A stretch of 42,252 nt of DNA from positions 1-42,252 of IMG/VR virus record IMGVR_UViG_3300011443_000025; one strand, 5' to 3'. The translations under genes were made by a program, and so were the position numbers. Positions 1 to 36,931 of this stretch are shown here, in pieces (within the stretch, counting starts at the first letter, position 1; the number at the start of each line of letters is the position of its first letter). This stretch comes from a virus. Its lineage: Duplodnaviria; Caudoviricetes. The notes under the pieces are model-generated. The model did not search any database and had not been told where the DNA came from. It was given only the letters and a program-made list of their open reading frames with translations.

Positions 1-2
1 CG

Positions 3-1151: not shown

Positions 1152-1626
1152 TCACCGCAGCGGTCGCAAGCGGCAGCCAGACGCGCTGCGCGTGCTGGCC
1201 GGCGGTCGCCCGCGGCAGGCGGTCGTGCTGCCGCCGTCGGTGGAGCCGGTCTGCCCGGAGGTCATCCAGGCCGACGCCATCGCGCTCCGCTACTGGCAGG
1301 CGTATGCGGCGCATCTGATGCCGCTTGGCATCCTGCAGCCGGAGCATGCGGAAGCCTTGGCGACGTTGGCGTGCGTGTCGGCGGACTACGAGCGGGCGCG
1401 GCAGCAGTTCGCGCAGACAGCGTTCCGCGCGTTCGTGACGGTGAAGAAGGGCGACGACATGCGCGTCATTGAGACGCCGATTCTGCGGCGGCTCGAGCAC
1501 CTGGCGCAGCTCAAGACGCGGCTGCTCGGCGAGTTCGGGCTGACGCCGGTCATGGCCACCAAGGTCGCGCGGGCCGCCGCGCCCAAGGCACTGAGCAAAT
1601 GGGAACGACTCACCCAGGCGCGGTGA
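1141..1626 (+). CDS. terS: Terminase small subunit (P27-like family)
   Basis: N-terminal SGRKRQP..LRVLAG and C-terminal LLGEFGLTP motifs; lies directly upstream of terL. Confidence 0.85.
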   Translation: MAGNHRSGRKRQPDALRVLAGGRPRQAVVLPPSVEPVCPEVIQADAIALRYWQAYAAHLMPLGILQPEHAEALATLACVSADYERARQQFAQTAFRAFVTVKKGDDMRVIETPILRRLEHLAQLKTRLLGEFGLTPVMATKVARAAAPKALSKWERLTQAR

Positions 1627-3191
1627 CGCGCGGGCCGCTCTCGAAGAAGCGCGCCGACCACGTGGTCGCGTTCATTGAGGGCCTGACGCTCTCGACTGAC
1701 AGCATCGCGTCGCATGCCGGCGAGCCGTTCGTGCTGCGGCCGTGGCAGCAGCGGATCGTGCGCGAGCTGTTCGGGCGCATGCGTGCCGACAACAAACAGC
1801 GTCGGGCGTATCGGACGGCGTTCGTCGCGCTGCCCCGGAAGAACGGGAAAACCGAAGTCTGCGCGGCGCTCGCGCTGTACGGGCTCATCGGCGACGGCGT
1901 GAAGGGCGGGCAAGTCTACTCGGCCGCGGCCGAACGCGAGCAGGCGGCGCTCGTCTTCAATGCGGCGCAGGCCATGGTGGAGCACGACCCGGAGCTCGCG
2001 GCGCGGATCGACATCCTGACGACGCGCAAGCGGATGGTGGACAAGGTGAGCGGCAGCTTCTACCAGGCGCTCTCAGCTGAGGCGTACAGCAAGCATGGGT
2101 TCAACGCCAGCTTCGTCATTTACGACGAGCTCCACGCGGCGCCGTCGCGGGAACTGTGGGACGTCCTGCGCACGTCGCAGGGCGCGCGGCGCGACCCGAT
2201 GATGGTGGCGATCACGACGGCCGGCTTCGACAAGACAACCATCTGCTGGGAGTTATGGGACTACGCGCGCAAGGTGCGGGATGGCGACGTGATCGACCCG
2301 TCGTTCTATCAGGTGTTGTACGAGGCGCCGGACGGGGCCGACTGGACGGACGAGACGGTGTGGCGCGCAGCCAACCCGGCGCTCGGGGACTTCCGCGACA
2401 TCGAAGAGATGCGGGCGTGGGCGCTCGAGTCGTCGCACAAGCCGGAGCAGCAGAACAGTTTCCGGCGGCTGTACCTGAACCAGTGGACGGAGCAGGAGGT
2501 GCGGTGGCTCGACATGACGCGGTGGGCGCAGTGCCGGCGGGTGGACCTCAGCGCCGCGGACGGGTGTGTGTCGTATGCCGGGCTCGACCTCGGGCTGAAG
2601 TCGGACTTGTCGGCCTTCGTGGTGGTGACGCGGCTACCGGATGGGACATGGCTGGTGCGGGCGCACTTCTGGATGCCGAAGGGCGCGATGGACGTGTTCC
2701 GCGCGCGGCCCTATGAGACGTGGAAGCGGTCGGGCGTGCTGACGCTGACCGAAGGCGACGTGACGGACTTCGAGCGGATCGAAGTGGACATCGCGCGGCT
2801 CTGGACGGAGTGGGGCGTGGTCGAGTGCGGCTTCGACCCGGCGTTCGCGGAAGCCTTACGGCAGCGGCTGGTCAAGCGGCTGTGGCCCAACCGGAAGGCG
2901 CCGCCGATGCACGAGCAGACGCAGGGCTACGCGCTCAACCTTGGGTTGCGCGCGATCGAAGAGGCCGTCGTGGATGGCTCGCTCGCGCATCACGACAACC
3001 CGGTGCTGACCTGGATGGCGAGCAACGCCGTCGTGCAGACGGGCCAGAAGGGCGACCTGCAACTGCGGAAGATGAAGGCGCGCGACAAGGTGGACGGCAT
3101 CAGCGCGCTCTCGATGGCGATGCAATTAGCGTCCATTCGCCAGCCGGCGAATCCCGGTGTGTATGACCAGCGCGAGGTACTGATCCTATGA
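1623..3191 (+). CDS. terL: Terminase large subunit
   Basis: Walker A PRKNGKT, Walker B IYDELH, ITTAG coupling motif, nuclease AGLDLG and KVDG. The GTG at 1623 overlaps the terS stop (GTGA). Confidence 0.97.
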   Translation: MTRGPLSKKRADHVVAFIEGLTLSTDSIASHAGEPFVLRPWQQRIVRELFGRMRADNKQRRAYRTAFVALPRKNGKTEVCAALALYGLIGDGVKGGQVYSAAAEREQAALVFNAAQAMVEHDPELAARIDILTTRKRMVDKVSGSFYQALSAEAYSKHGFNASFVIYDELHAAPSRELWDVLRTSQGARRDPMMVAITTAGFDKTTICWELWDYARKVRDGDVIDPSFYQVLYEAPDGADWTDETVWRAANPALGDFRDIEEMRAWALESSHKPEQQNSFRRLYLNQWTEQEVRWLDMTRWAQCRRVDLSAADGCVSYAGLDLGLKSDLSAFVVVTRLPDGTWLVRAHFWMPKGAMDVFRARPYETWKRSGVLTLTEGDVTDFERIEVDIARLWTEWGVVECGFDPAFAEALRQRLVKRLWPNRKAPPMHEQTQGYALNLGLRAIEEAVVDGSLAHHDNPVLTWMASNAVVQTGQKGDLQLRKMKARDKVDGISALSMAMQLASIRQPANPGVYDQREVLIL

Positions 3192-3376
3192 GCAACAAGA
3201 CCCCCAAGGACCAGTGGACGATGAAGGACACGGCCCGGTGGTACGACGTCACGTACAACACCATCAAGCGGTGGAAGCGCGTCAAAGACCCGCGGCTGCA
3301 CGTCGTCGCGGATACGCCCGGCCGCGGCGTGCGGATCTGGCCGCCCGTCACGAGCACCACCACCAGCACGAAGTAA
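3188..3376 (+). CDS. Small MerR/Xis-like HTH DNA-binding protein, candidate late regulator
   Basis: 62 aa with TMKDTARWYDVTYNTIKRW helix-turn-helix and a TPGRGVRI wing. ATGA coupling with terL. Confidence 0.7.
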   Translation: MSNKTPKDQWTMKDTARWYDVTYNTIKRWKRVKDPRLHVVADTPGRGVRIWPPVTSTTTSTK

Positions 3377-3378
3377 CC

Positions 3379-3415
3379 GGGTACATCTGGGTACACGCGG
3401 GTACATTTGGGTACA
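3379..3415 (+). repeat. Four GGGTACA direct repeats at exact 10-bp period (putative protein-binding array)
   Basis: GGGTACA at 3379, 3389, 3399 and 3409, intergenic, starting 3 nt after the HTH gene stop. Confidence 0.85.
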
Positions 3416-3468
3416 CGGCGCGCCCGCCGCCGTTCCACGTGCCACAACCTCTCCCACCATAGGTCGCG

Positions 3469-3636
3469 GTGAGAGCCGACCGACCGAGCGGGCTGGGCGT
3501 CGCCGACGGCATGGCCGTCGTAGGCGCGGGCCTCGTCATCTGGGGCGTCGGCCTGACCTCGCTGTCAGGCGGCCTGATTGCGGCGGGCGTGGTGCTCGTC
3601 GTCCTGTCCGTGCTGCTGGCGCTGCGGCATGGCTGA
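3469..3636 (+). CDS. Small two-TM membrane protein
   Basis: Not in the ORF track. GTG..TGA gives 55 aa MRADRPSGLGVADGMAVVGAGLVIWGVGLTSLSGGLIAAGVVLVVLSVLLALRHG. Small membrane genes of this kind are common between terL and portal, and it overlaps the next start. Confidence 0.65.
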   Translation: MRADRPSGLGVADGMAVVGAGLVIWGVGLTSLSGGLIAAGVVLVVLSVLLALRHG

Positions 3637-5008
3637 CCTCGCGCACTACTTCATGGACGTGCCCGGCTGGTTTGACTGGCCGGACCTCTACGCGCAGCTC
3701 GTGGATACGCTGCCGTCGGGCGCGCACGTCGTCGAAGTGGGTGGCTGGAAGGGCCAGTCGGCGGCCTTCATGGGCGTCGAGATTGCGCTCAGCGGCAAGG
3801 CCATCCGGTTCGACGTCGTCGATACCTGGCTCGGCACGCCGACCGAGACGCTGCACACGGACGACCCCGACGTCCGAGCCGGCCGCCTCTACGAAGCCTT
3901 CCTCACACACACAGACCCGGTGCGGGAATTCGTCCATCCTGTCCGGTTGGCGAGCGTGGAGGCGGCCGGCTCGTACGCCGACGGCAGTCTCGATGCCGTC
4001 TTCCTCGACGCCGACCATGCGACCGCGTCCGTCCTGAGCGACCTCGAGGCGTGGTGGCCAAAGGTGAAGCCGGGCGGCCTGGTCGCCGGGCATGACCGCG
4101 ACTGGGCCAGTGTCGGGCGGGCGGTGAAGGCGTGGGAAGCGTTCGCGGGCGTGCGGGTCAAGCCGGCGAGCCGGTCCTCGTGGGCGTTCCGCAAGCCGGT
4201 GCCGGTGACCGACTGGACGGTGCCCGAGGACGAGCGCGCCATCCTCATCGCCATCTGCTCCAACGAGCGCAGCATCTACCGGCAGACGGCCAAGTCGCTG
4301 CTCGCGTCGCTCGCGGGCGGGCACGCCGAAGAGGCGGTCAAGAAGCACGGCTTCCAGGACTACGCCATCCGCTGGGTGGACCAGTACCCGTCGGTCGCCG
4401 CGATGCGCGATTACGCCCTCATGCAGGGCACGGTCATGGGCGCGTCGCATGTCCTGTTCCTCGACGCGGATATGACCTGGCCGACCGACCTGCTCGACAA
4501 GATGCTGCGCCATCACAGCGTCGGCATGGTGTCGGGGGTGTACCACCTGAAGCAGTGGCCCTATTGGCCGGTCGTGCTCGACCAGCCGTTCATCGACCCC
4601 GAGAAGCACACCACCGAGTACCACTACGCGCCGCAGGTGCTCGACGAGACGGAGCTGCAGCGGGTGGACCTCATCGGCATGGGCTGCGCCCTGGTGCCGC
4701 TGCGCATCACGCGGGCCTTCATGCGGCCGTGGTTCGAGTACGTGCTCGACAACTGCGGGCTGCCGGCCATCACGGAAGACGTCGCGTTCTGTGCGCGCTC
4801 GCGGGCGGTCGGCTGTCCCATCTGGGTGGACCCGACCGTCAAGTGCGGACACATCGGGCAGCAGGTCATCGACACGCCGTGGTTCCGGCGGGGCGAGCTC
4901 GAGATGCGGCTGCTGAAAGAGAAGCGCGCGGCCGGCGAAGACGTGAACCAGATGGCGCAGCTCTTCGAGGCGACCACCGAGTCGCAGCAATCCGGGAGTG
5001 CGGCATGA
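3629..5008 (+). CDS. Class I SAM methyltransferase (Methyltransf_24-like) fused to a GT-A glycosyltransferase
   Basis: N-terminal VVEVGGWKGQS, VFLDADH and KPGGLVAGHD. C-terminal HVLFLDADM (DxD), IGMGCALV, TEDVAFC and DPTVKCGHIG. Start at ATG 3629 (MADLAHYF). Confidence 0.85.
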   Translation: MADLAHYFMDVPGWFDWPDLYAQLVDTLPSGAHVVEVGGWKGQSAAFMGVEIALSGKAIRFDVVDTWLGTPTETLHTDDPDVRAGRLYEAFLTHTDPVREFVHPVRLASVEAAGSYADGSLDAVFLDADHATASVLSDLEAWWPKVKPGGLVAGHDRDWASVGRAVKAWEAFAGVRVKPASRSSWAFRKPVPVTDWTVPEDERAILIAICSNERSIYRQTAKSLLASLAGGHAEEAVKKHGFQDYAIRWVDQYPSVAAMRDYALMQGTVMGASHVLFLDADMTWPTDLLDKMLRHHSVGMVSGVYHLKQWPYWPVVLDQPFIDPEKHTTEYHYAPQVLDETELQRVDLIGMGCALVPLRITRAFMRPWFEYVLDNCGLPAITEDVAFCARSRAVGCPIWVDPTVKCGHIGQQVIDTPWFRRGELEMRLLKEKRAAGEDVNQMAQLFEATTESQQSGSAA

Positions 5009-6288
5009 GCCTGCTCGGCGGTCTGCTGAAGCGCAGCACGTTTGCCAACCCGGATGACTTCCTGCGCTCCGCGCTGGGCGGGGAGCCGACGGCGTCCGGC
5101 GTGGCGATGACCTCCGAGAAGGCGCTCGGCATCCCGGCGGTCTATGCCGCGGTGTCGCTCGTGTCCGACGCGGTGGGCTCACTGCCGCTCAAGGTGTTCA
5201 AGCAGACGGCCACCGGCAAGGCGGTGGATACGACGCACCCGCTGTCGTCGGTGCTGCACCAGTTGCCGAACCCGGAGATGACGGCGATCGAGCTGCGCTC
5301 CGCGATGCAGGGCCACCTGATGCTGCGCGGCAATGCGTTTGCCGAGATTCAGCGCGACACGTCGGGCCGGGTCGTGGCGCTGTGGCCATTGGCGCCGCAC
5401 CTGATGACGGTGACACGGGACGAGCGCCGCGGGCTCGTCTACCTGTACCGCCTGCCGGACGGCCGCGACGTCAAGTGGACGTGGAGCCAGCCGAAGACGC
5501 AGCCGGCGCCCATCTTCCACGTGCGCGGCTTGGGCTACGACGGATATACGGGCTATTCGCCGCTGACGCTGCACCGGGAAACGCTCGGCCTAGCCTATGC
5601 CGCGAAGGAATACGGCGCGCGGTTCTTCAGCAACGCGGGCCGGCCGAGCGGGGTGCTCAAGGCGCCGGGCCAGTTGAGCGACGAGGCGCGGCTGCGGCTC
5701 AAGGCGGCGTGGGATGCCACGACGCGCGGCCTCTCGAATGCGCACCGGGTGGCCGTGCTCGAAGAGGGCATCGAGTGGCAGCAGGTCGGCATGGACCCGG
5801 AAGACTCGCAGATGCTGCAGTCGCTCCAGTACAGCGACGCGCAGATCGCGACGTTGCTGCGGGTGCCGCCGCACATGATCGGCCAGGTCGATCGCTCGAC
5901 GTCGTGGGGCACCGGCATCGAAGCGCAGCAGACGATGTTCCTGCAGTATTCGCTCGTGCCGTGGCTGTCGCGCTGGGAGCAGGCGGCCGGACGTGACCTC
6001 CTGAGCGTGAAGGGCTTTGCCACGCGCTCGGTGCGGTTCGTGGTGCAGGGCATGCTGCGCGGCGACCTGCAGAGCCGCAGTGCCTTCTACCAGACGATGT
6101 TCGACCGCGGCGTCTTCTCCGTGAACGACATCCTGGAGCTCGAAGACCGCAACACCATCGGCCCGGCCGGGGACGTGCGGTACGTGATGGGCAACCTGAT
6201 GCCGCTCGGCGAGACGCCGATTGCGGCACCCGAGCCTGCGCCCAGACCGGCCCTGACCGGCGACACCGAACCGGAAGGGGTCATGTGA
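5005..6288 (+). CDS. Portal protein, HK97 family
   Basis: AVYAAVSLVSDAVGSLP, LRGNAFA, GYSPL, FFSNAGRPSGVL and RVPPHMIG motifs. ATG 5005 overlaps the upstream stop (ATGA). Confidence 0.96.
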   Translation: MSLLGGLLKRSTFANPDDFLRSALGGEPTASGVAMTSEKALGIPAVYAAVSLVSDAVGSLPLKVFKQTATGKAVDTTHPLSSVLHQLPNPEMTAIELRSAMQGHLMLRGNAFAEIQRDTSGRVVALWPLAPHLMTVTRDERRGLVYLYRLPDGRDVKWTWSQPKTQPAPIFHVRGLGYDGYTGYSPLTLHRETLGLAYAAKEYGARFFSNAGRPSGVLKAPGQLSDEARLRLKAAWDATTRGLSNAHRVAVLEEGIEWQQVGMDPEDSQMLQSLQYSDAQIATLLRVPPHMIGQVDRSTSWGTGIEAQQTMFLQYSLVPWLSRWEQAAGRDLLSVKGFATRSVRFVVQGMLRGDLQSRSAFYQTMFDRGVFSVNDILELEDRNTIGPAGDVRYVMGNLMPLGETPIAAPEPAPRPALTGDTEPEGVM

Positions 6289-6911
6289 TGGGCGAACGGG
6301 AACGCCGTGTCGTCACGGCACCGATGGAAGCGCGCGCGGGCGACGGCGACGGCGGCACCGCGCGCACGCTGAGCGGCTATGCCGCGCTCTACAACAGCGA
6401 GACGCGGATCGCCAACTTCCGCGAAGTCATCGCGCCGGGCGCGTTCCGGTCGGCGTTGAAGCGTGGCGACGATGTGCGCGGGCTCTTCAATCACAACCCG
6501 GATCACGTGCTCGGGCGCACGGCTGCCGGCACGCTGCGGCTGTCCGAGGATGCGCGCGGCCTGCGGTACGAGCTCGACCTGCCAGACACGCAACTCGGGC
6601 GCGACCTGTGGACGTCGGTGCGCCGCGGCGATGTCAGCCAGTCGTCCTTTGCCTTCACCGTCGAGGCGCAGGCCTGGCAGGACGAATCGACGGCCGTGCC
6701 GCTGCGCGTCATCAAGGACGTCCGGCTGTACGACGTGAGCGCGGTCACGTACCCGGCGTACGACGAGACGTCGGTCGCGGCGCGCGGCTACGTCGAGGCG
6801 CTCCAGGCCGATGTGGCGCGGCTCGCGGCCCGGGCGTCGTGGCAGGCGCAGGCGGCCACGTTGCGCGCGAAGGCCGCGATGGTGGACGTATGCGGCCGGC
6901 GGCGCCATTAG
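6288..6911 (+). CDS. Prohead protease, HK97 family
   Basis: LSGYAALYN, FREVIAPGAF, LFNHNPDHVLGRT (His), SQSSFAF (Ser) and LYDVSAVTYPAY. Confidence 0.95.
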   Translation: MGERERRVVTAPMEARAGDGDGGTARTLSGYAALYNSETRIANFREVIAPGAFRSALKRGDDVRGLFNHNPDHVLGRTAAGTLRLSEDARGLRYELDLPDTQLGRDLWTSVRRGDVSQSSFAFTVEAQAWQDESTAVPLRVIKDVRLYDVSAVTYPAYDETSVAARGYVEALQADVARLAARASWQAQAATLRAKAAMVDVCGRRRH

Positions 6912-7159
6912 GCGATGTCCGGTGCGACTTCTGTCGCAAGAAGTTGTGCCTGATGACGGAGGACGCGCTCGCGCCGGGCGGGCGTCTGCAGTTCAAGTGC
7001 GACCGGTGCAACAAGTACACCGAGCGTCGAGGACCAGTACCAACCGACCAGAAGCCCGTTGAGGCTCCGTGTCACTCAGTCGCCGCCGTGGCGACGAGGG
7101 GCGGACATGAACACGGAGTTTCTGATCACGAAGCGGACGGCTCTCGTCGCCAAGGCTGA
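6890..7159 (+). CDS. com: Com-family (phage Mu Com-like) zinc-finger translational regulator
   Basis: ATG 6890 follows GGTGGA. DVRCDFCRKKL...LQFKCDRCNKYT matches the Com pattern RCxxCxKxL...xKCxRC. The ORF overlaps the capsid start, as com overlaps mom in Mu. Confidence 0.75.
   Translation: MRPAAPLGDVRCDFCRKKLCLMTEDALAPGGRLQFKCDRCNKYTERRGPVPTDQKPVEAPCHSVAAVATRGGHEHGVSDHEADGSRRQG
7046..7109 (+). promoter_or_regulatory. Putative Com-binding site plus translation-inhibitory hairpin over the capsid RBS and AUG
   Basis: GACCAGAAGCCCGTTGAGGCTCCGTGTC, then nested pairing GTGTC/GACAT, CTC/GAG and GTCGCC/GGCGAC that buries part of GAGGGG and the ATG at 7107. Confidence 0.7.
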
Positions 7160-8306
7160 AGAGCTCGTCTCCCGCACCGAGACCGACCAGCGGGCGATGT
7201 CGCCCGAGGAACTGACCGAGCACGCCGACGTGCTGACGCAGGTCGGCAGCATTGACGCCACGCTGCGCGCCCATGATGCGCAACTGGCCGTGGAAGTGGC
7301 CGCCGCCAACCCGGCGAAAGCCGAGCGGGCCATCGTGCCTGGCGCGGGCGAGCACAGCGTCGCGCGGGTCGAGCGGCACACGGCGACCGAGGAGTACCGC
7401 AGCGCGTTCGAGACGTTCGTCCGCAGCGGCCTCGTGCTGCCGGAACTGCGCGCGCAGACCGTCACCACCGACACCGCGGGCGGGCATCTCGTGCCGGACG
7501 AATGGCACAACGAGATCGTCCGCAAGATGTCCGACTACAACGTGATGCGGCAGTACGCCACCATCATCCAGACGAGCATGGGCAGCTTCAACATCCCGAC
7601 CGAAACCAGCCGCGGGACGGCCGGGTGGACGGGGGAGACGGTTGCCTACAACGAGACTGAGGACGTGTTCGGCAACATTGCGCTGACGCCCTGGAAGATG
7701 ACGCGGCTCGTCAAGGTGTCGGAGGAACTGCTCGCCGACAACGCCTTCAACATCGGCGGCTACCTGGCGGACACGTTCGCGCTGGCGTTCGCCGAGTTGG
7801 AGGAAGCGGCGTTCGTGGACGGCGACGACTCGAGCAAGCCCAAGGGGCTCATCCGCTCGACGGCGCTGGGCACGACCGCCACCGGCACCAACGTGATCAC
7901 GTTCGACGACATCGCCAGCTTGTACTACTCGGTGAAGCCGGCGTACCGGAACCGCGGCGTCTTTCTCATGAACGACGCGACCCGCGCGTCGCTCGCCAAG
8001 CTCAAGACGGGCGTCGCCTCCGATGCGCGCTACCTGTGGGCCGAGAACCTGGAAGGCTCGCAGCCGGCCACGCTGTTCGGCCGCCCGGTGATTTCCTCCA
8101 GCGCCATGCCGGTGCTCGCGGCCACCAAGAAGGTCGTGGCCTTCGGCGACCTCAGCTACTACTACGTGGCCGACCGGCCGAGCACGGGCTTTACCCGGCT
8201 CAACGAACTCTATGCCGCCAACGGGCTGATCGGCTTTGTCGCCAATCGGCGCGTGGACGGCGAGCTCACGCAGTCGGAAGCCGTGAAGCATCTGACCACG
8301 ACCTGA
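7107..8306 (+). CDS. Major capsid protein, HK97 fold with N-terminal delta/scaffold domain
   Basis: Coiled N-terminus, AGGHLVP, VSEELLADN, FVDGDDSSKPKG, TLFGRPV and AFGDLSYY. RBS GAGGGG before ATG 7107. Confidence 0.97.
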   Translation: MNTEFLITKRTALVAKAEELVSRTETDQRAMSPEELTEHADVLTQVGSIDATLRAHDAQLAVEVAAANPAKAERAIVPGAGEHSVARVERHTATEEYRSAFETFVRSGLVLPELRAQTVTTDTAGGHLVPDEWHNEIVRKMSDYNVMRQYATIIQTSMGSFNIPTETSRGTAGWTGETVAYNETEDVFGNIALTPWKMTRLVKVSEELLADNAFNIGGYLADTFALAFAELEEAAFVDGDDSSKPKGLIRSTALGTTATGTNVITFDDIASLYYSVKPAYRNRGVFLMNDATRASLAKLKTGVASDARYLWAENLEGSQPATLFGRPVISSSAMPVLAATKKVVAFGDLSYYYVADRPSTGFTRLNELYAANGLIGFVANRRVDGELTQSEAVKHLTTT

Positions 8307-8311
8307 CGGCC

Positions 8312-8479
8312 ATGGTGCGCATGCGCCTGCGGGAGACGGGTCGGATCGTCGTCTGTGATGACGAGCAGGCCCGGCTCTGGATCGCGCAGGGGTATGCCGA
8401 GCCGGCGCCCGAGGCGGAGACCACCGCCCGGACGACGGTCCCTGTCCCGGCCCGGGTGCCGGATGTGGAGACGCGATGA
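8312..8479 (+). CDS. Small head-associated hypothetical protein
   Basis: 55 aa MVRMRLRETG...ARLWIAQGYAEP, between capsid and connector, with ATGA coupling downstream. Confidence 0.6.
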   Translation: MVRMRLRETGRIVVCDDEQARLWIAQGYAEPAPEAETTARTTVPVPARVPDVETR

Positions 8480-9081
8480 GCCGCACTGCGATGCTGACGA
8501 GCGTGGGGTACACCGGCCCGGTGGGACGCGAGCGCGTCACGCCGCCGGACGCCCCGTTGCTGCGTCTCGAGGACGTGCGGGCGCGGCTCCGGCTGCCGCA
8601 TGACGACGAGGACGTGCAGTTGCAGGACTTCCTCGAAGCGGCGCTCGACGACGTCGAGGCGCAGCTCGGGCGGTTGTTGCTGCCGCAGACGGTGCGCTGG
8701 TGGTATGACGGCCTGCCGTGTGCCGACGTCGTCCTGCCGGAACCGGCGCGGGCGATCGTCGCCGTGACGACGTACGCCACCGACGACGACACGACAGGGA
8801 CGGTCGTGGACGCCGGCTCGTACGGGCTGGACGCCTATCGGTCCCGCCTCCTGTTCACGACGTCGCCGTCGAGCGGGCGCTCCTGGAACGGCGTCTCGAT
8901 CGAGGCTGAGGTCGGCTACGCGAGTGCCGTGGCTGTGCCGCCCGCGCTCGTGCAGGCGGTCTACCTCGAAATCCAAGGGCACTACCTGCGCGGCAGCGAG
9001 CCACCCGGGGAAGGCACCGCGCGTCGTGAGGCCGTGACGCGCCTGCTGGCGCCGCACCGGTTCCGTATGGGGGTCGCGTGA
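8476..9081 (+). CDS. Head-tail connector (gp6-like)
   Basis: LEDVRARLRL..DEDVQLQDFLEAA..VEAQLGRLLLPQT, GY...VPPALVQAV and LLAPHR; synteny. Confidence 0.88.
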   Translation: MSRTAMLTSVGYTGPVGRERVTPPDAPLLRLEDVRARLRLPHDDEDVQLQDFLEAALDDVEAQLGRLLLPQTVRWWYDGLPCADVVLPEPARAIVAVTTYATDDDTTGTVVDAGSYGLDAYRSRLLFTTSPSSGRSWNGVSIEAEVGYASAVAVPPALVQAVYLEIQGHYLRGSEPPGEGTARREAVTRLLAPHRFRMGVA

Positions 9082-9422
9082 TCGGCACCTACACCGAGCG
9101 GATCACGGTGCAGACGCGCACCGTCGTCAACGACGGCGGCCAGCCCGTCGAGTCGTGGGCCGACAGTCTCGTGCGGGTGGCGGCGAGCGTCATGACGACC
9201 GCGGGCGCGCGGGTGGAGCGGGTCTTTGGCGCACAGGTGCAGGGTGAGACGACGCATGTCGTGGCGCTGCCGGCGCCGAGCGGGGACGTGGCGTTGACGA
9301 GCCGCGTGGTGTGGCACAGCCGGCATGGCGATCGGACGCTGGCGATTGTCGGCAAGGCCGTCATGCAGGACGCGCGGCAGCGCGAGGTGACGCTGGCCTG
9401 CCAGGAGGCGCGCACGCCATGA
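9078..9422 (+). CDS. Head closure / head-tail adaptor (SPP1 gp16-like)
   Basis: ERITVQ...GGQPVESW...LACQE pattern; synteny. Confidence 0.82.
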   Translation: MIGTYTERITVQTRTVVNDGGQPVESWADSLVRVAASVMTTAGARVERVFGAQVQGETTHVVALPAPSGDVALTSRVVWHSRHGDRTLAIVGKAVMQDARQREVTLACQEARTP

Positions 9423-9850
9423 GCGTGAGCCTCACGTTGAAGGGGTTGACAGACCTCGTGAAGTCGCTCGAGCGGATGCCCGACGGCCTGGAGCAGAAGG
9501 CGGGCGCTACCGTGCGTCAGGCGGCCATCGAGACGGCGGCCGACCTGCAGAGCAAGCTGCCGATTGGGCCTGGTCGCAAGGCCACGAAGAAACGGGCGGC
9601 GGTCGCGGGCGGCAACCTGCGCAAGGGTGTGCGGGTCGTGCAGCGTGACCCGCTCGTGTGGCAAGTCGTCAGCGCCGCCCCGCATGCCTGGATTCACGAG
9701 GAAGGCACGAAGGCGCGCACGAGCCGGCGCGGCAACCGTGGCGTGATGCCGGCCAGCAAGATTGTCGCGGGTGTGGCGTCGTCCCATCGGCGGGCCATGA
9801 ACGGCCGGCTGGAACAGGTGCTCGTGCAAGTGCTCTCGGAGGCGCGGTGA
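9419..9850 (+). CDS. HK97 gp10-like tail completion protein
   Basis: LKGLTDLVKSLE, GNLRKGV and APHAWIHEEGT. ATG 9419 is coupled to the upstream stop. Confidence 0.8.
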   Translation: MSVSLTLKGLTDLVKSLERMPDGLEQKAGATVRQAAIETAADLQSKLPIGPGRKATKKRAAVAGGNLRKGVRVVQRDPLVWQVVSAAPHAWIHEEGTKARTSRRGNRGVMPASKIVAGVASSHRRAMNGRLEQVLVQVLSEAR

Positions 9851-10248
9851 GCAGCACCGTGACCGCGTCCCTGCAGGCGTACCTGGCGGCCGATGCCACG
9901 TTGACGGCGGCGGCGGTGGGCGGCGTGTGGGTGGAGCCGGCGCCGCAGGATGTCGCCGAGCCGTTCGTGGTGATTGAGCCGACCGGCGGCGGGGACGAGG
10001 GCTGCGGCATTACGCGCCTGACGTACGAGGTGGCGGTGGTCGCGCCCACGGTGGCGGTGGGCACGGTGCGTACCGCGGCCGAGCGGCTCGACTGGCTGCT
10101 GCACTACGCGGCGATGCGGGAGTCGTTGGACGGGTTTCTCGTGTTGGGCAACCGGAACACGGCGCCCATCGACGAGACGTTCGAGGAAATCACTGGCCGG
10201 TATGTGCGGGTCGGTGGGGAGTACACGCTGCTCGCCGAGCATGCGTAG
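9847..10248 (+). CDS. Tail terminator (DUF3168-like)
   Basis: LAADATLTAAAVGGVW..PAPQDVAEPFVVI. GTG 9847 coupled; precedes the tail tube gene. Confidence 0.78.
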   Translation: MSSTVTASLQAYLAADATLTAAAVGGVWVEPAPQDVAEPFVVIEPTGGGDEGCGITRLTYEVAVVAPTVAVGTVRTAAERLDWLLHYAAMRESLDGFLVLGNRNTAPIDETFEEITGRYVRVGGEYTLLAEHA

Positions 10249-10268
10249 CACCGTGAGACGACGGACTG

Positions 10269-10316
10269 GACCTGACGCCCCTCGAGGCGCCGTGTCGAAG
10301 GGAGACGATTGACATG
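10269..10316 (+). promoter_or_regulatory. Second putative Com-binding site plus AUG-sequestering hairpin (tail tube gene)
   Basis: GACCTGACGCCCCTCGAGGCGCCGTGTC is 23/28 identical to 7046-7073. GUGUCGA can pair with UUGACAU, covering the ATG at 10314. Confidence 0.7.
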
Positions 10317-10715
10317 GCACGCATGAGTGGCGAAGACCTCGCCGTCCAGCAGACCACGAACGGCACCACGTGGACGTCGTTTGGATGCTTCCGGCGGTTC
10401 AGCATCAACGCGACGCGGGACTTCTACGAGGCGACGTGCGCGTCGGATACCAACAAGACGTACAAGCCCGGCAAGCGGGACTTCAGCGTCAACGGCGAGT
10501 TCGTGTACGACGACGCGCAGCTGTCGATCTTCTCGGCGGCCGAGGGCACGTCGGCGGTGACGTTGCGCTTCATCCCGAACGACACCGTGACCAATCACAA
10601 CTGGTCCGGCACGTTCTGGGTCAGCTACACGGTGGACGCGCCGTACGACGGGATCGTCACCGGCACGCTCGAAGCGCGGGCGGATGGTGCCGTGACGCGC
10701 AGCACCACGACGTAA
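10314..10715 (+). CDS. Major tail (tube) protein
   Basis: FSINATRDFYEAT...KTYKPGKRDFSVNGEFVYD...WSGTFWVSYTVDAPYDG, a TP901-1/lambda-like tube pattern; synteny. Confidence 0.85.
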   Translation: MARMSGEDLAVQQTTNGTTWTSFGCFRRFSINATRDFYEATCASDTNKTYKPGKRDFSVNGEFVYDDAQLSIFSAAEGTSAVTLRFIPNDTVTNHNWSGTFWVSYTVDAPYDGIVTGTLEARADGAVTRSTTT

Positions 10716-10730
10716 CACGGAGGGCGGCTG

Positions 10731-10997
10731 ATGTCGCTGTGTTTTACCGGCAAGGGCGGCGAGCTGCGACAGGGACGTCGCCAGCTCGCGCGCCTGGCGA
10801 CGTTCTGGAAAGACGACAAGCGGGTGACGTTCTCGACCGACTACGTGAACCCCTTCGCCGCGGGCCTCGGGCCGCCCACGGAGATTGTGTTGCCCCTGAC
10901 GCCGAAGGCCGTCCGCATCTATCCGGTGACGGCCGGTAGCGTGGAGTCTGGGGTCGTGATGATTGACCTGATGCAGGCCCGCACGGAGACCCTATGA
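10731..10997 (+). CDS. Hypothetical tail-region protein
   Basis: RBS GGAGGG; coupled to the next gene by ATGA. Confidence 0.6.
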   Translation: MSLCFTGKGGELRQGRRQLARLATFWKDDKRVTFSTDYVNPFAAGLGPPTEIVLPLTPKAVRIYPVTAGSVESGVVMIDLMQARTETL

Positions 10998-11377
10998 GCG
11001 ACCGTCTGACCAAGATCGCCTCGGATTGGACCGCCGAGGATTCGAGTACCCGGCACGTCCTGCCGAAGGGGCAGTGGATTGAGTTTCGCGACGAGGTGGC
11101 GTACGGCGAGCAGGCCGCGCTCGACATCGCGTGCAAGCCACTCGCGGATGAACTCGCGCTCCCGAAGCGGCTCGCGTTCCATGTGACGGCGTGGTCGCTG
11201 ACCTACGCCGATGGCAAGCCGTTGCCGGTGTGCGAGGAGTCGCTGCAGGCGATGCCGATGTCCCGGCTGTGGGTGTTGCTCGAGGCGCTGCGGACGCACA
11301 CGGAGGCGACGAAGGCCAAGTATGCCGACCCTTTGTCCGAGGACGACTCGAGCAGTGCTTCGCCGTCTGCCGCGTGA
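10994..11377 (+). CDS. Tail assembly chaperone (G-like)
   Basis: Position before the tape measure; VTAWSLTYADGKPLP motif; slippery site near the 3' end. Confidence 0.75.
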   Translation: MSDRLTKIASDWTAEDSSTRHVLPKGQWIEFRDEVAYGEQAALDIACKPLADELALPKRLAFHVTAWSLTYADGKPLPVCEESLQAMPMSRLWVLLEALRTHTEATKAKYADPLSEDDSSSASPSAA

Positions 11378-11493
11378 TGCGGTGGTCGTTTCGGGACACC
11401 TGGCGTTTGCCGGTGCCGGTGTTTGAAGCGGCCGTGCGATTCGTCAACGAGTTCGTCGTCAAACAGGCCGACCCGGATGACTTCCTGGACTAG
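11329..11493 (+). other. -1 programmed frameshift (C CCT TTG) and GT-type chaperone extension
   Basis: The heptamer CCCTTTG at 11329-11335 is in X XXY YYZ phase (GAC CCT TTG). The -1 frame continues FVRGRLEQCFAVCRVMRWSFRDTWRLP... to a stop at 11493, 3 nt before the tape measure. Confidence 0.78.
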
Positions 11494-11496
11494 CTG

Positions 11497-14400
11497 ATGC
11501 CGACCGTCAAGGCCACCTTCACCGCCGACATCAGCCAGTTCCGGCAGTCGCTCGCGCAGGCGAGCACGGCGGTGACGGCGTTTGACCGGACGGTGGGCCA
11601 GGTCAACACCGACCTCAAGAAGTTCGGCAATCAGTTCAGCGGCGCGACCCTCACGCGCCAGGCCGAGACGATGGCCAAGGCCATCGCGGATATCGGCGGC
11701 GCGACTCGCCTCACCGACGCTGAGATGAAGCGGGCCAACGCCACCATCAGTGAGGCGATGGCCAAATACAAGGCGCTCGGCACCGAGGCGCCCGCCTCCA
11801 TCCGCTCACTCTCGCAGGAACTCCAGAAGCTGAACACGGAGTCGGCCAAGGTCGGCACGTCACTCACGGGCGCCAGCAGAGGGCTCGGTGGGTTGCTGAC
11901 CGGCATAGCGGCGGGCGCCGGCTTTGCGGTCTTCACGGCCGCGCTCGGACAACTGAAGGGCCTGGCCAGCGAAGCGACCGCGTTTACGCCGCTACAGCAA
12001 TCGTTCGAGAAGCTCCAGGGCGGCGCCCTGCAGGCCGAGTCGGCCCTGCTCGGGCTCCGTGTCGCCACCAAGGGCTTGGTGTCCGATACGGACCTGCTGC
12101 GGGCCGCGAACAAAGGCAGCCTGCTCGGGCTCGGCGACATGGGCATCAAGTTCGACGAGGTGGCGCGCGTGGCCACCGTGCTCGGCCGCGCGATGGGTCA
12201 GGACGCCGCGAAGTCGGTCGATGACCTGACGACGGCGCTGTCGCGGATGTCGCCGCAGATTCTGGACAACCTGGGCATCAAGGTCGATCTGACCAAGGCC
12301 ACCGCGGACTACGCGAAGGCGAACCACAAGTCGGTCGAATCACTGACGGAGGAGGAGAAGAAGCTCGCCTTCGCGACGGCGGCCATGGACGCGGCGCGCA
12401 CGAAGGCGAAGGCGCTCGGCGACGCCCAGCTCACAGTCTGGGAGAACACGCAGAAGATCACGACGGCGCTGTCGGACATGGTCGTGCAGGTGATCAGCGC
12501 CGGCAATGAGTCGCAAGGCTTTGCCGCCGCGCTGGGCAAGGTGGCGGACGCCCTCGACCGCCTGCGCAATACGGGGCCGGCCGCGATCCGCGCGATTAAG
12601 ACCGAGATGGATCTCGCGCTCAAGCTCGGCGTCCAGGGCGCGGGTGGCGGGACGCCCATGGGCGCGGCGATGTTCGGCGGCGGCCCGTTCGGCGCGCTGA
12701 TCTCGGCCTACATGAATATGCGCATGGGGCCGATGCAGGCGGCCGATATTGGCACATTCGGAGGCGCCGCGCGTGGGCGCGACATTACACTACCCGGCGC
12801 GGTGACGCCGGCCACCGTCGCGCCCGCCGCCGTCGAGAAGGCCGAGAAGACGACTAAGAAACTCACCGACCTCCAGCGCGAACTGAACGCCGAGACACAG
12901 AAGGCGTTCAAGTTCGCGCATGACGCCGCGCGCGGGTGGGAAGAGTACGAGGGCAACCTGCAGCTCGCGCGCATGGAGATGGAAGCCTTCATCGCCATGC
13001 AGCCGGACAACCTCATCGGCGCCAAGCATCCGATGTCGGCCATTCTGTCCGGCCCGTACCAGTACCAGATCAGCGACAACATGACCGGCGGCGTCCTCGA
13101 CGGCACCAAGAAGGTCGCCGTCGCGACGAAGGACTGGCGCGTCCAGTTGCAGGGCGTGGCGCAGGCGTTCGCGCAGCTCGCGCAGGTCGGCGGCCCGGCG
13201 TTACAGCGCATCAACCAGTCGCTCGGCACGGTGTTCGCGGCGGCCAACGCGGGGCAGCAGATGGTGTCCGCGTTGGCGGAGATGGTCGGCGGCCTGACGA
13301 CCACCAAGGATGGCAAGACTGTCCCGACCACCGCGGGCAAGGCGCTCGGCGGCGGGCTCGCCGGACTCAGCGCCGGCATGTCGGTCGGCAGTCTGTTCAC
13401 GAACCGTGGCAAGGGCGCGCTGGCGGGGGCGGCCAGTGGGGCTGCGGCCGGCGGGATGGCCGGCGGCTGGGTGGGTGCGGGCGTCGGTGCGCTCGTGGGT
13501 GCCTTCGCGGGCATGTTCGCGTCGGCCGCCAATGCGGCAGCGCAGCGTGTCGCGAAGGACGTCCAGGCGGGCCAGCTCACCGCGGAGTTTGGCGGGCTCG
13601 ACAAGTTGCTCGACGTGGTCGGCGGACTCGGCATGTCACAGGGCGGCTTCCTGAAGGCGTTCTACGGGGAGCCGAAGGCGTTCGCGCAGGCCGTGACGCA
13701 ACTCAATCAGGCGCTCGCGAAAGAGCGGCAGGAAGCCGACAAGCTCGCCAAGAGCCTGGCCGAAGTCGCGCGTGTGCAGGGCGTGCTCAGTCGGCAGCAG
13801 CTCACGGCGATGACGCACATCCGTCCTGGCGGCCCTGGCTCTGAGGAGGTCGTGGCGTTTGCCGCGCAGCAGCGCGACCAGGCGGAAGCCGGCATCACGC
13901 AGGCCATTGCCGCGCTCGATACGCTCACGGCGGGCGGCACGCAGAACCTCGACCAGTTCGACGCCAGCGTGGGCGCCGTGACGGCGTCGCTCGTCGTCCT
14001 GTTCGACCAGGCGGTCAAGAGCGGCGAGTCGGCGGTCACGGTGCTCAAGCGGCTCGCGGCGCCCATCCAGCAACTGCAGGCGCTGATGGCCGCGGGCGGC
14101 ATGACGCCGGGCGCGGGGTTCGGCAACCTCCAGGCGTTGTCCGACATCGCGGGTGGCGCACAGACCGGGCCGCTCGTCGAGATGGCGCAGGGGTTGGGCT
14201 CGGCGCTGGCTGGCCTGGCCAACACCGGCCTGCTATCACCGGAGCTCTTCGCCGAACTCGCCAACGGCATCGGCGAGGCCTACAAGCAACTCGAAAACCT
14301 CGGCAAGGGCGGGCTCGAAGCCGCGCGGCTGATGCAGCCGAGCCTCCAGGCCCTGTGGCAGATGCTCCAGGACAACCCGGAACTCGCTGCGGGCCTGGAC

Positions 14401-14811
14401 GAGAGCACGAAGGCCTTGCTCGATTTCGCGGAATCGTCCGGCCTCATCGGTGACAAGTTCCGGCCGGCGATCGACCAGATGATCGCGTCGCTCAATGACT
14501 TGATCGCCAAGATTGGCGAGTTGATCGACACGATGGCGGACGTGCCCGCGCTGCCAGGTGGATCGTCGTCGGGGCAGCCGTTCGGCGGGCAGGACCCACC
14601 GGCCATGGCCGCGGGTGGTGTGGTCACGCGGCCGACCGTCGCGCTCGTGGGCGAAGCCGGCCCGGAAGCCATCATCCCGCTCGCCAAGCTGGGCGGGATG
14701 CGCGGCCCCAGCGAGCAGACCATCAACATCATGCTGGACGGGCGCCTCATTGCGAACTCCGTTGTGCGTGAGCTGCCGCGCGTCGTGCGCGTCTACACGG
14801 GGGCGGCGTAA
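11497..14811 (+). CDS. Tape measure protein
   Basis: 1104 aa, Ala/Gly-rich and helical. N-terminal FTADISQF, ILDNLGI, and C-terminal MAAGGVVTRPTVALVGEAGPEAIIPL. Confidence 0.95.
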   Translation: MPTVKATFTADISQFRQSLAQASTAVTAFDRTVGQVNTDLKKFGNQFSGATLTRQAETMAKAIADIGGATRLTDAEMKRANATISEAMAKYKALGTEAPASIRSLSQELQKLNTESAKVGTSLTGASRGLGGLLTGIAAGAGFAVFTAALGQLKGLASEATAFTPLQQSFEKLQGGALQAESALLGLRVATKGLVSDTDLLRAANKGSLLGLGDMGIKFDEVARVATVLGRAMGQDAAKSVDDLTTALSRMSPQILDNLGIKVDLTKATADYAKANHKSVESLTEEEKKLAFATAAMDAARTKAKALGDAQLTVWENTQKITTALSDMVVQVISAGNESQGFAAALGKVADALDRLRNTGPAAIRAIKTEMDLALKLGVQGAGGGTPMGAAMFGGGPFGALISAYMNMRMGPMQAADIGTFGGAARGRDITLPGAVTPATVAPAAVEKAEKTTKKLTDLQRELNAETQKAFKFAHDAARGWEEYEGNLQLARMEMEAFIAMQPDNLIGAKHPMSAILSGPYQYQISDNMTGGVLDGTKKVAVATKDWRVQLQGVAQAFAQLAQVGGPALQRINQSLGTVFAAANAGQQMVSALAEMVGGLTTTKDGKTVPTTAGKALGGGLAGLSAGMSVGSLFTNRGKGALAGAASGAAAGGMAGGWVGAGVGALVGAFAGMFASAANAAAQRVAKDVQAGQLTAEFGGLDKLLDVVGGLGMSQGGFLKAFYGEPKAFAQAVTQLNQALAKERQEADKLAKSLAEVARVQGVLSRQQLTAMTHIRPGGPGSEEVVAFAAQQRDQAEAGITQAIAALDTLTAGGTQNLDQFDASVGAVTASLVVLFDQAVKSGESAVTVLKRLAAPIQQLQALMAAGGMTPGAGFGNLQALSDIAGGAQTGPLVEMAQGLGSALAGLANTGLLSPELFAELANGIGEAYKQLENLGKGGLEAARLMQPSLQALWQMLQDNPELAAGLDESTKALLDFAESSGLIGDKFRPAIDQMIASLNDLIAKIGELIDTMADVPALPGGSSSGQPFGGQDPPAMAAGGVVTRPTVALVGEAGPEAIIPLAKLGGMRGPSEQTINIMLDGRLIANSVVRELPRVVRVYTGAA

Positions 14812-14814
14812 CCG

Positions 14815-16533
14815 GTGGCGCTCACCTTCACCATCAACGGCGTGAACCGGCGCGCGAACCTGCGCGACGGCACGCTGTCGATCGACAAGCATCTCGGGCT
14901 CGAGGTGCTGACGGCGCAAGTGCTCGAAAAGACCACGCCCGGCGCGTCCGCGTTCCGGCCGACGCTCGGCCACGCCGTCTATGTGACCGACGGCGCCAAC
15001 CTGCTCTTCGGGGGCGAGATTATCGAGCGCCGCGAAGAGACGGTGTGGCAGGCCGGCGGGCTGCCGACGCTGACGCTCAACACCATCACGGCCAAGAGCT
15101 ACGACGCGCTGGCCGAGCGCATCGTGATCGACACGCTCACCGTCCCGTCGCAGGGCGTCTTCACCACGGCGGCGTCGCTGTGCACGACGTACCTGACGCC
15201 GCTCGGCGTGACCAACATCGGGACGGTGTCGGGTGGCCCGGTGCTGCCCGCGTTGGAGTTCGACCATCAGACGTTGTCGGCGATTTTTGGGCAGCTCACA
15301 TTACTGAGTGGGTATCCCTGGCGGATCAATGGCGACAAACAGTTCGCCTTTGTCGCCCCCGGCTCCTTCACTGGCACGACCATCACGGAAGCCAACGCGC
15401 TCGAAGCCGACCTGCGCATCGAGCAGACGCGCGCCGTGCGGGTCAATCGGCTCTTCCTGCAGACCGGCGGCACGGGCACGGTGACTCACACCGAAGGGCG
15501 CACGCTCAACGGCACGCAGACGACGTTCCTGCTGAACGTCGAACCGGCCGAGCCGCCCACCACCGTCACGGAGAACGGCGTCTCCATGGCCATCGGCGGC
15601 GGGACCTGGACGTACAACAGCACGCTCAAGGCGGTCGTGCGCGCGTCGGGTGGCACCAACGGCCATCTCATCGTCGTGCCGTTCACGGTGACGTTCCCGG
15701 CGTGGGTGCGCGTGTGGGATGCGAGCGTGCAGGCGGCCTCGGGCGCGTGGACGACGACGGCGCTCGTGGACGGCCTGGTCGAGGCGTCCGAGCAGACCGA
15801 CCTCGGGCAGGCCAAGGCGTGGGGCGATGAGGAACTGTCGCGCCGCTTCCTCGAACCGCTCATCGTGACGGTGCGGACGCGCACGAAGAACTACTACCCG
15901 CTGCTCCACGTGACGCTGACCCTGCCCGACAGCAACATCAGCGGCACGTACCTCGTGGAGTCGGTGCGCGTCGAAGCGCAGGACGACGACAACATCGTCT
16001 ACGCGGCGGTGTGCGTCCAGGACGACGTGCTGCACACGGCCTGGTTCGACTACTTCAAGCGCCGCGGCGGGACGACGGGCGGCGGGATGTCGGTCGCGGG
16101 CACGGGCAGCACGAGCGGCACACCGGGCACGCCGGGTGGTGGCGGGACGACGCTCCCGTCGGGCACGACCTTCCATCTGGGCGGCAGCAACGACCAGTCG
16201 ATCACGGCGACCACGAGCTGGCAGGCGGCGCCGGAAGCCATCCCGACACAGCTCGGCGGCACCGGGATGGCGGGCACCTGGACGCTGCGCGTGCCGATGT
16301 ACCAGCTCTCGGCGGGCACGATGGAAGTGCGGCTCTATGACCAGACGGCGGGCGCGGCCCTGGCGACGCTCTCCAGTACGGCGGTCGGCACCTATGTCGA
16401 TGTGAGCTTCTACTCGTACCAGACGGGCAGCGTGACGGCGCCGGCTGGTGTCTCGAATGTGCTGCTCGAGGTGCGGGTCACCTCGGGGTCGCGGCCGGTG
16501 GTCGTGGGGCATTCCACGGTGGTGAAGGCATGA
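14815..16533 (+). CDS. Minor tail protein (distal tail / hub-like)
   Basis: Follows the tape measure; beta-rich, Thr/Gly-rich, with a Gly-rich linker and a C-terminal beta domain. Confidence 0.7.
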   Translation: MALTFTINGVNRRANLRDGTLSIDKHLGLEVLTAQVLEKTTPGASAFRPTLGHAVYVTDGANLLFGGEIIERREETVWQAGGLPTLTLNTITAKSYDALAERIVIDTLTVPSQGVFTTAASLCTTYLTPLGVTNIGTVSGGPVLPALEFDHQTLSAIFGQLTLLSGYPWRINGDKQFAFVAPGSFTGTTITEANALEADLRIEQTRAVRVNRLFLQTGGTGTVTHTEGRTLNGTQTTFLLNVEPAEPPTTVTENGVSMAIGGGTWTYNSTLKAVVRASGGTNGHLIVVPFTVTFPAWVRVWDASVQAASGAWTTTALVDGLVEASEQTDLGQAKAWGDEELSRRFLEPLIVTVRTRTKNYYPLLHVTLTLPDSNISGTYLVESVRVEAQDDDNIVYAAVCVQDDVLHTAWFDYFKRRGGTTGGGMSVAGTGSTSGTPGTPGGGGTTLPSGTTFHLGGSNDQSITATTSWQAAPEAIPTQLGGTGMAGTWTLRVPMYQLSAGTMEVRLYDQTAGAALATLSSTAVGTYVDVSFYSYQTGSVTAPAGVSNVLLEVRVTSGSRPVVVGHSTVVKA

Positions 16534-18617: not shown

Positions 18618-18642
18618 CGTGTTGAGAGAAAAGGCTGACATT

Positions 18643-19176
18643 ATGCGACAGAGTCTCCTGCTGATGTGTCTGTGTCTCTGGCCGACTGTCGGCGTCGCGC
18701 AGTTGACCTATGAGCAGCGCGCGGCGTTCGCCAAGGACCAGACGTTCATCGATCGCGTGGGCGTCGCCGCGCAGCAGCAATCGGTGATTGCACAGGGCGA
18801 GAATCCCCCGACGTGCTGCCAGACCTCGGCGCAGGAAGCGCTCGCGCCTGGTGCCAGCACCCTGTGCTCGCTGGTGATTCCGCCAGGGTCGCCGACGGCG
18901 CCGGATTATGTGAAAGCGAAATCCGTCGATCGCCATAACGCACGGGCCCGACTGGCGGTCTCGGTGGCGCAGAATCCGTCACTCTGGGCGCAGCGGTTTG
19001 CGGCGTCCATTGCGTCGGATACGTGTGTGGTGCCGCCGTTTACCGATGCGCAGTTGCAGGCGTACATGACGCGCATGTGGGACCTCTGGGCGCTGTCGCC
19101 GGAGCTCGCCGCGACGGCCACGGCCCAAGCGGCGACACAACAGGGCGTGGTGGCGTTGCCGCCGTCGCTGCGGTGA
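18643..19176 (+). CDS. Secreted hypothetical protein
   Basis: MRQSLLLMCLCLWPTVGVA|Q signal peptide; several Cys. Confidence 0.65.
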   Translation: MRQSLLLMCLCLWPTVGVAQLTYEQRAAFAKDQTFIDRVGVAAQQQSVIAQGENPPTCCQTSAQEALAPGASTLCSLVIPPGSPTAPDYVKAKSVDRHNARARLAVSVAQNPSLWAQRFAASIASDTCVVPPFTDAQLQAYMTRMWDLWALSPELAATATAQAATQQGVVALPPSLR

Positions 19177-19182
19177 TCGGCC

Positions 19183-19488
19183 ATGGTGATCGAACTGTTG
19201 ATCGCGGGTCTGTTGAGTCAAGGCCCGAGCCAGGCGCCACGGGCGCCCGCGACGCCGGCAGACGCCGTCCCGCCGTCACCAGCGTTGTCCGAGCTGCACC
19301 AGGCGCAGGTTGAAGCGCATCTGCTGCGCGTCAAGACGCTGCAGCTCGAAGTCCAACTCCAGCAGATGGTGCTCTCGGAGCAGCGCACGAAGCTCGAGGC
19401 GGCCATCGTCGCCGACCACCCGGGCTGGACGATGAATTGGGAGAAGGGCGTGCTCGTGCCGGTGCCGCCGAAGGGGACGCAACCATGA
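19183..19488 (+). CDS. Hypothetical protein with hydrophobic N-terminus and coiled coil
   Basis: MVIELLIAGLLSQ, a Pro/Ala linker and a Leu/Gln heptad segment; coupled to the next gene. Confidence 0.6.
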   Translation: MVIELLIAGLLSQGPSQAPRAPATPADAVPPSPALSELHQAQVEAHLLRVKTLQLEVQLQQMVLSEQRTKLEAAIVADHPGWTMNWEKGVLVPVPPKGTQP

Positions 19489-36907: not shown

Positions 36908-36931
36908 GAGCGCCTTTGAGCGCCGAAGGAG
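36908..36931 (+). promoter_or_regulatory. Tandem GAGCGCC-TTT-GAGCGCC (Com-type site) upstream of the MT-A70 gene
   Basis: Intergenic direct repeat, followed one base later by AAGGAG. Confidence 0.5.

Follow-up and report, generated by a model that had tools for sequence, protein, structure and literature searches.

A Com-like zinc-ribbon gene and conserved Com-type RNA hairpins before the capsid, tail tube and probably protease genes of an uncultured temperate phage

The closest described counterpart of the system reported here is the com-mom switch of phage Mu, in which the RNA site bound by Com has a core of CC-N2/3-GAG placed in a loop, an invariant C-G closing pair and a variable stem of 3–4 bp, and in which Com binding is modeled to melt a neighboring inhibition stem (PMC6483171). 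PMC3299994 describes operons of com with adenine methyltransferase genes in Mu-like prophages (FluMu hin1523, hia5, nma1821 and phage B3), and in Pseudomonas com-like genes, often unannotated, stand ahead of llpA bacteriocin genes, tailocin cargo and lysis genes, and homologs of levansucrase, the authors remarking that the general role of these mini-genes is unexplored (PMC6240691, PMC4684702). Here we analyze IMG/VR virus record IMGVR_UViG_3300011443_000025, a sequence of 42,252 bases with 68% G+C (the window, taken over its whole length) from an uncultured, temperate, non-Mu phage of the HK97 type, whose plus strand encodes terminase, portal, protease, capsid, connectors, tube and tape measure; integrase and helix-turn-helix genes lie farther along. 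A Com-like open reading frame (ORF) lies between its protease and capsid genes, and conserved hairpins lie before the starts of the capsid, the tail tube and probably the protease; we think it likely that these hairpins are bound by the Com-like protein, which would free the ribosome-binding sites (RBSs) of these genes as Com does for mom.

A first-pass annotation of the window had pointed to a hidden 89-aa zinc-finger ORF between protease and capsid that overlaps the capsid start, and this ORF is present (Table 1). It shares its first 22 nt with the 3' end of the protease gene, extends 53 nt into the capsid gene, and in translation carries the cysteine pairs C12-x2-C15 and C37-x2-C40. A search among 1.84 billion representatives returned nine matches, six of them small proteins and three long repeat proteins that were excluded from the homolog set; all four cysteines are invariant in the eight rows of the family alignment (A2). 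The closest homolog, P0002, has 72 aa and is 65% identical to the 89-aa protein. In an independent relative, locus L012, the same ORF occupies the protease-capsid junction, its start overlapping in the same way and its stop falling on the capsid AUG, as does that of the ORF of P0002, and the capsid AUG assigned in the window agrees in position with that of L012. Over the 38 finger codons that align between the window and L012, differences number 7, 11, and 15 at codon positions 1, 2, and 3, respectively, and of the two alternative frames one contains stops in both phages and the other in L012. Judged by these comparisons, the 89-aa ORF is a real gene; it was missed by ORF calling from the first start, and such genes are likely under-annotated. 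The structure model of the protein is a four-strand zinc ribbon with a mean predicted local distance difference test score of 85, a predicted fold that does not distinguish zinc-ribbon families, and a search of the ESM Atlas returned only unnamed clusters.

The repeat reported ahead of the tube gene was also recovered: two 28-mers, at 7046 and 10269, are identical at 23 of 28 positions, whereas the runner-up among ungapped matches on the two strands reaches 18 of 28. The conserved unit is not the 28-nt string itself, as had been proposed, and is better described as a hairpin of the form GA-[4 bp]-C-N2/3-GA-[4 bp]-C. The Mu site reads GA-[AUGC]-CUGCGA-[GCAU]-CC, and the stem that comes after it contains the mom GUG; the first-pass annotation had given the Mu layout correctly. 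The capsid hairpin occupies codons 54–60 of the com-like ORF, in the codon frame found in Mu com, and the tube hairpin lies 65 nt beyond the previous stop with no ORF over it. Pairing of GUGUC with GACAU at both starts is predicted, and is longer than first stated (six pairs at the capsid and seven at the tube). The inner stems predicted at the capsid (7075-7077/7096-7098, at the Shine-Dalgarno sequence, SD, and 7079-7084/7090-7095) include the GAG of the SD, in agreement with the earlier claim that they cover part of it. In the folding models, each start or SD lies within a stem that has bases in common with the hairpin or directly adjoins it. The strict hairpin pattern occurs three times in the window, each time on the coding strand before a start, compared with 0.31–0.56 per window in Markov controls, in which three were reached in 2–6 of 300 cases; the count is partly circular for the capsid and tube sites. 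Rfam gave no match in the window. A CC-N2/3-GAG loop, a C-G closing pair and a second GA half-site are shared by the capsid and tube sites, by a site before an MT-A70 methyltransferase gene (see below) and by the sites of L012, L013, L014, and L016. At most sites a GACC-like element stands just upstream of the leading GA (7046-7049 and 10269-10272 in the window; also L012, L013, L014, and L015), and the protease hairpin contains GACC twice; this element may be an extra, clade-specific half-site.

Table 1. Coordinates of the Com-like gene, the hairpins and their predicted or candidate target genes in the window.
Feature	Position	Strand	Description
Third hairpin, non-consensus	6245..6261	+	GA-[CCGG]-CCCUGA-[CCGG]-C; portal 3' end, 27 nt before protease AUG
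Prohead protease gene	6288..6911	+	PF04586, E 2e-49; overlaps com start; probable third target
Com-like CCCC zinc-ribbon ORF	6890..7159	+	89 aa; finger codons ~6923-7009
Capsid Com-type hairpin	7046..7068	+	GACC (7046-7049), GA-[AGCC]-CGUUGA-[GGCU]-CC (7051-7068); inside com ORF
Capsid translation-inhibition structure (predicted)	7068..7109	+	7068-7073 pairs with 7104-7109, including AUG
HK97-type major capsid gene	7107..8306	+	PF05065, E 6e-73; 399 aa from AUG; predicted target
Tube Com-type hairpin	10269..10291	+	GACC (10269-10272), GA-[CGCC]-CCUCGA-[GGCG]-CC (10274-10291); intergenic
Tube start-hiding stem (predicted)	10290..10317	+	10290-10296 pairs with 10311-10317; SD ~10300-10304
Tail tube gene	10314..10715	+	133 aa; phrog_1407 major tail protein, E 5e-15; predicted target
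Candidate fourth hairpin	36908..36925	+	GA-[GCGC]-CUUUGA-[GCGC]-C; match to bipartite SELEX consensus

Relatives of the tube gene were collected by protein homology alone (68–79% identity), independently of the hairpin. Own or near-identical copies (L003 and L017), a locus with no upstream DNA (L018) and a weak match over 15 residues (L021) were set aside, and L014 was merged with L019 and L015 with L020. The hairpin was found in all four independent relatives (L013, L014/L019, L015/L020, and L016), 19–63 nt before the AUG, against a background of 0.0007–0.0014 per 60 nt. In L015 the closing pair shows a compensatory change from C-G to U-A and the start-hiding stem of the tube is identical. 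Free folds of L013 and L014 are predicted to pair the 5' arm and loop of the hairpin with the SD, and L016 carries an insertion and a separate SD stem; the GUGUC/GACAU stem is kept in some relatives only, others being predicted to hide the SD by hairpin-SD pairing. Before the capsid gene, L012 keeps the ORF, the hairpin and the start-hiding stem, with the inner stem maintained through a U-A to C-G change. As regards the conservation asked for by the first-pass annotation, the motif stands before the capsid in one relative and before the tube in four of four. Across eight sites with 6-nt loops, 32 of 32 cells were paired and all four pairs had two-sided changes, a tally that leaves out three sites with 5-nt loops and is partly circular, the sites having been picked by pattern. 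The MAFFT alignments A3 and A6 misregister short sites and understate pairing there. In one of the other public sequencing runs (X5), a diverged contig aligned to 6950-7191 at the finger start and at 7043-7100, and not between or just after them, which hints weakly at better conservation of the RNA element than of the coding sequence on either side.

None of 43 sequence-only pattern matches elsewhere kept all three variable stem pairs or had a Com-like ORF, and the matches from the viral and genome pattern scans (L011, L022, and L073-L115) were put down to chance, the true ones being near-copies of the window together with L012/L023. No Com-like ORF or hairpin was found at the protease-capsid junction of 49 distant protease loci, whose 571,952 bases contained one strict match, on the opposite strand, nor at the junction of five distant capsid loci.

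The Com kinship put forward by the first-pass annotation is supported indirectly, by way of homologs and of profile comparisons. The window protein has no match to PF10122 (Zn_ribbon_Com; gathering cut-off 22.9 bits), and its closest homolog P0002 scores 19.5 bits, below the cut-off, which two more distant homologs pass (P0038 with 31.8 bits and P0040 with 27.8 bits); all seven homologs in A2 match PF10122 at E ≤ 0.05. A hidden Markov model (HMM) built from A2, an alignment that contains no Mu sequence, had Mu Com as its best non-self match among 16,014 six-frame ORFs (E 7e-5), and HHalign matched the family profile to Mu Com with a probability of 94.5% and E 8e-8. The sole PHROG match of the window protein, at E 0.012, was phrog_6417 ("translational regulator"), a family matched by Mu Com at 3e-10, and tblastn of P0002 gave only matches at E ≥ 0.1, one of them annotated as "translational regulator Com." Since the window protein lies below the PF10122 cut-off, we label it Com-like only: on sequence grounds it appears to be a divergent relative and not a formal Pfam member. 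A further short ORF, at L036:3505-3702 between the regions of HNH and terminase, has one CxxC pair together with a KLL motif; it matches the A2 profile weakly (E 0.058) and PF10122 not at all, and was not counted as com.

Relaxing the pattern to any closing pair gave seven matches in the window against 2.0 ± 1.4 expected, and four of them lie 24–40 nt before a start. One precedes the protease gene (Table 1). A stretch of 16 nt of it is identical in L012 amid diverged flanks. The leading GA comes from an arginine codon, for which the window uses AGA (3 of 280 Arg codons across 13 structural genes) and L012 uses CGA (1 of 55). Because both phages use rare Arg codons that keep the leading GA, the constraint appears to act on the bases, beyond the amino acids. 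The peptide that the hairpin encodes, [RP]PA[LP]TG, forms the C-terminal tail of 11 among the 14 closest portal homologs in a comparison at the protein level, and its Leu/Pro change alters a loop position only. In predicted free folds of both the window and L012, bases of the protease hairpin pair with the protease SD. The first-pass annotation had proposed a multi-site regulon of the two highest-copy virion proteins; two targets are probably too few, the protease being probably at least a third.

A candidate fourth target is an MT-A70 methyltransferase gene (36947-37993) in the replication region, 30 kb from com. The hairpin at 36908, which matches the bipartite consensus from SELEX, lies 29 nt before the second AUG of this gene (36953), and the rough chance of an extra strict match near a start is 0.02. 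It directly follows a six-codon mini-ORF (36888-36908) and is itself followed by an SD-like GAAGGAG that is at least 15 nt from the nearest AUG. Eighty MT-A70 loci (737,960 bases) contained no strict hairpin; these belong to unrelated phages without a detected com, so the figure serves as background. Two other sites were rejected. The first, at 10986 over the SD and AUG of a chaperone-like gene, fits the sequence layout, has one of four stem pairs and is absent in L015, L016, and L018; in this region (10994-11494) the chaperone-like ORF of 127 aa is succeeded by 39 open codons in a different frame, which run up to the tape-measure start, an arrangement that resembles tail-chaperone frameshift pairs. 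The second lies at 4969, ahead of the portal start; this CC-N3-GAG hairpin has no leading GA and is deleted in L012.

By analogy with Mu, the Com-like protein would bind the loop GA, fix the hairpin and weaken the competing stem. Because the tube site is 3.2 kb from the com gene, the protein would act in trans at several places along the late message, as we infer from the window alone, and synthesis of the high-copy morphogenesis proteins would be delayed or raised relative to that of the minor ones. The locus would then hold a switch like that formed by Com and the translation-inhibition structure (TIS) of mom, but transferred to virion genes and distributed among several sites. To gauge this in folding models, the 18-nt hairpin was blocked in silico and the drop in start-opening energy measured. 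Among 140 control blocks the median drop was 0.3–0.8 and the 90th percentile 3.3–3.8 kcal/mol; the control starts (n = 28) were set mostly mechanically, with the portal start 6 nt off, and the controls are approximate. Blocking lowered the opening energy by 3.2–3.9 kcal/mol at the window capsid, 3.0–7.9 at the window protease, 5.6–8.4 at the L012 capsid (with 2.9–4.7 also obtained for L012), 3.8–9.2 in L013, 3.0–7.2 in L015 and 6.2–6.7 in Mu. At the capsid and the protease the start is more tightly closed than in the upper quartile of controls. The opening effect exceeds the control 90th percentile at some sites and is absent or varies with the model at others, and folding leans towards activation without amounting to proof.

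Several observations weigh against the proposal that the Com-like protein opens these starts. The blocking effect was about 1 kcal/mol at the window capsid in the second folding model, and at the window tube it was 1.3–2.8 in the first model vs. about 9 in the second; in L014 the drop varied (1.3–5.3), in L016 it was below 0 and at MT-A70 about 0, and the tube start (12.0–12.7 kcal/mol, against a control median of 10.2–11.5) is not unusually occluded. The G-C closing pair of the protease hairpin and the U-A of L015 depart from the C-G pair that is invariant in SELEX. The window protein matched neither PF10122 at E ≤ 1 nor any NCBIfam model, a Foldseek search of its fold returned generic zinc ribbons only, none at E ≤ 0.001, and the link of the family profile to Mu runs partly via the two Pfam-positive members of A2. 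A single independent relative (L012) spans com, protease and capsid; no relative spans both com and tube. The 49 protease loci used as controls are distant (29–56% protease identity), and the hairpins of capsid and protease overlap codons, so that coding constraint by itself can keep their bases.

A more ambitious and rather doubtful version makes Com the master of a self-reinforcing late switch, a positive-feedback RNA circuit over a single late transcript by which a lambda-like phage would set the timing and ratio of its main virion proteins. Com would open the protease start, translation of the protease would cross the com start and yield more Com, and rising Com would release capsid and tube in trans, perhaps along with the distant MT-A70 gene, whose type would be the ancestral target of Com. 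The overlap of protease and com may thus, as we infer, provide feedback.

Among accounts that do without this activation, one would have ribosomes on the com-like ORF open the capsid start in cis, the tube hairpin serving another factor or a fixed rate. The ORF does cover the capsid stem over its full length, has its stop at the capsid AUG in L012 and P0002, and has its start overlapping the protease end in both the window and L012. We nevertheless consider this account improbable, for it leaves unexplained both the conserved, Com-related four-Cys finger and a tube hairpin that is present in four of four relatives with no ORF over it.

Repression, in which the protein binds the same hairpins to repress or cap translation of capsid, tube and protease, has precedent in the many phage RNA-binding proteins that repress near an RBS, and the hairpins of L016 and MT-A70 are predicted to form freely, so that blocking them opens nothing. 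Yet the hairpins end 19–63 nt short of the start and clear of the core footprint of the ribosome, and in predicted free folds of L013, L014, and both protease sites the hairpin pairs with the SD, which occupancy by the protein would release; Mu Com, moreover, is an activator (PMC6483171). We regard repression as unlikely on this balance. A role of the hairpins in transcription, through antitermination or mRNA processing and stability, seems very unlikely to us: all sites abut start codons or SDs, and a scan of 1-20000 for terminator-like sites found eight, against 7.3 in shuffles, with none at or just after the three hairpins. That the repeats act as DNA, as operators or parts of internal promoters to which a DNA-binding zinc ribbon attaches, is highly improbable, even if a small zinc ribbon does not by itself indicate RNA binding and NCBI-style names call Com "DNA-binding," given that stem sequence varies while pairing is kept (in the partly circular tally above), that all sites lie on the coding strand at RBS distance and that a promoter scan found none of the sigma-70 type.

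The sequence itself is well supported. A search of sequencing runs found near-identical DNA in sediment and groundwater metagenomes, with no RNA run among the listed holders, and contigs from other public runs cover 6100-6806 (X4) and 6803-7322 plus 9970-10500 (X5) with zero differences; as these contigs span all three sites, an assembly artefact is excluded. The genome contig collection searched contained no relative of the tube gene, and hence no host was found, and capsids of cultured phages reached at most 45% identity among the best 15 of 577 matches. Elsewhere in the window, a second DNA methyltransferase (N6_N4_Mtase; 15-1151) stands at the very start of the record, directly before the small terminase gene, and a gene at 3578-5008 between terminase and portal, found in the same place in L023, combines a Methyltransf_24 domain with a C-terminal half that received no domain assignment. 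Downstream of the tail genes, a 618-aa ORF (19437-21293) has weak matches to fascin/FRG1-like beta-trefoils.

A single late phage transcript must yield hundreds of capsid and tube subunits and few portal and tape-measure subunits, a disparity usually credited to fixed RBS strength. If our reading is true, a trans-acting RNA-binding activator with sites before high-copy genes would be an inducible alternative to it. That reading would likewise answer the question raised in PMC6240691 about the role of Com-like genes outside com-mom. With a protein core of ~45 aa and hairpins of 18 nt that come in natural variants, the components are very small, which makes the claim directly testable in an E. 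coli reporter, and they could give an orthogonal translational ON switch. The literature covered, mostly outside subscription journals and the classical Mu papers, contained no Com sites before capsid, protease or tube genes.

Set beside com-mom of Mu, the window shares a small N-terminal CCCC finger, a site in the 3' part of the protein's own ORF and in the same codon frame, the GA-[4 bp]-C-N3-GA-[4 bp]-CC architecture with a 3' CC that begins the predicted start-codon stem, and overlap of the ORF with its predicted target gene. It differs in that the predicted targets are structural genes instead of a DNA-modification gene, with com overlapping the capsid gene; in having several sites, one of them at a distance from com; in a finger with five more residues between the Cys pairs that falls below the Pfam cut-off; and in the GACC element before most sites and the other closing pairs at some. 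The com-methyltransferase operons (PMC3299994) likewise have a Com homolog and predicted binding sites ahead of the target gene, and here too a candidate hairpin precedes an adenine methyltransferase (MT-A70); there, however, com stands directly before the methyltransferase, whereas here MT-A70 is remote and its site a candidate. With the Pseudomonas loci the window has in common that com-like mini-genes precede diverse late or inducible genes, but the accessible text on those loci describes one com per cargo, with no distant RNA sites and no capsid, protease or tube targets (PMC6240691, PMC4684702), where the window would have a single Com-like gene serving several virion genes.

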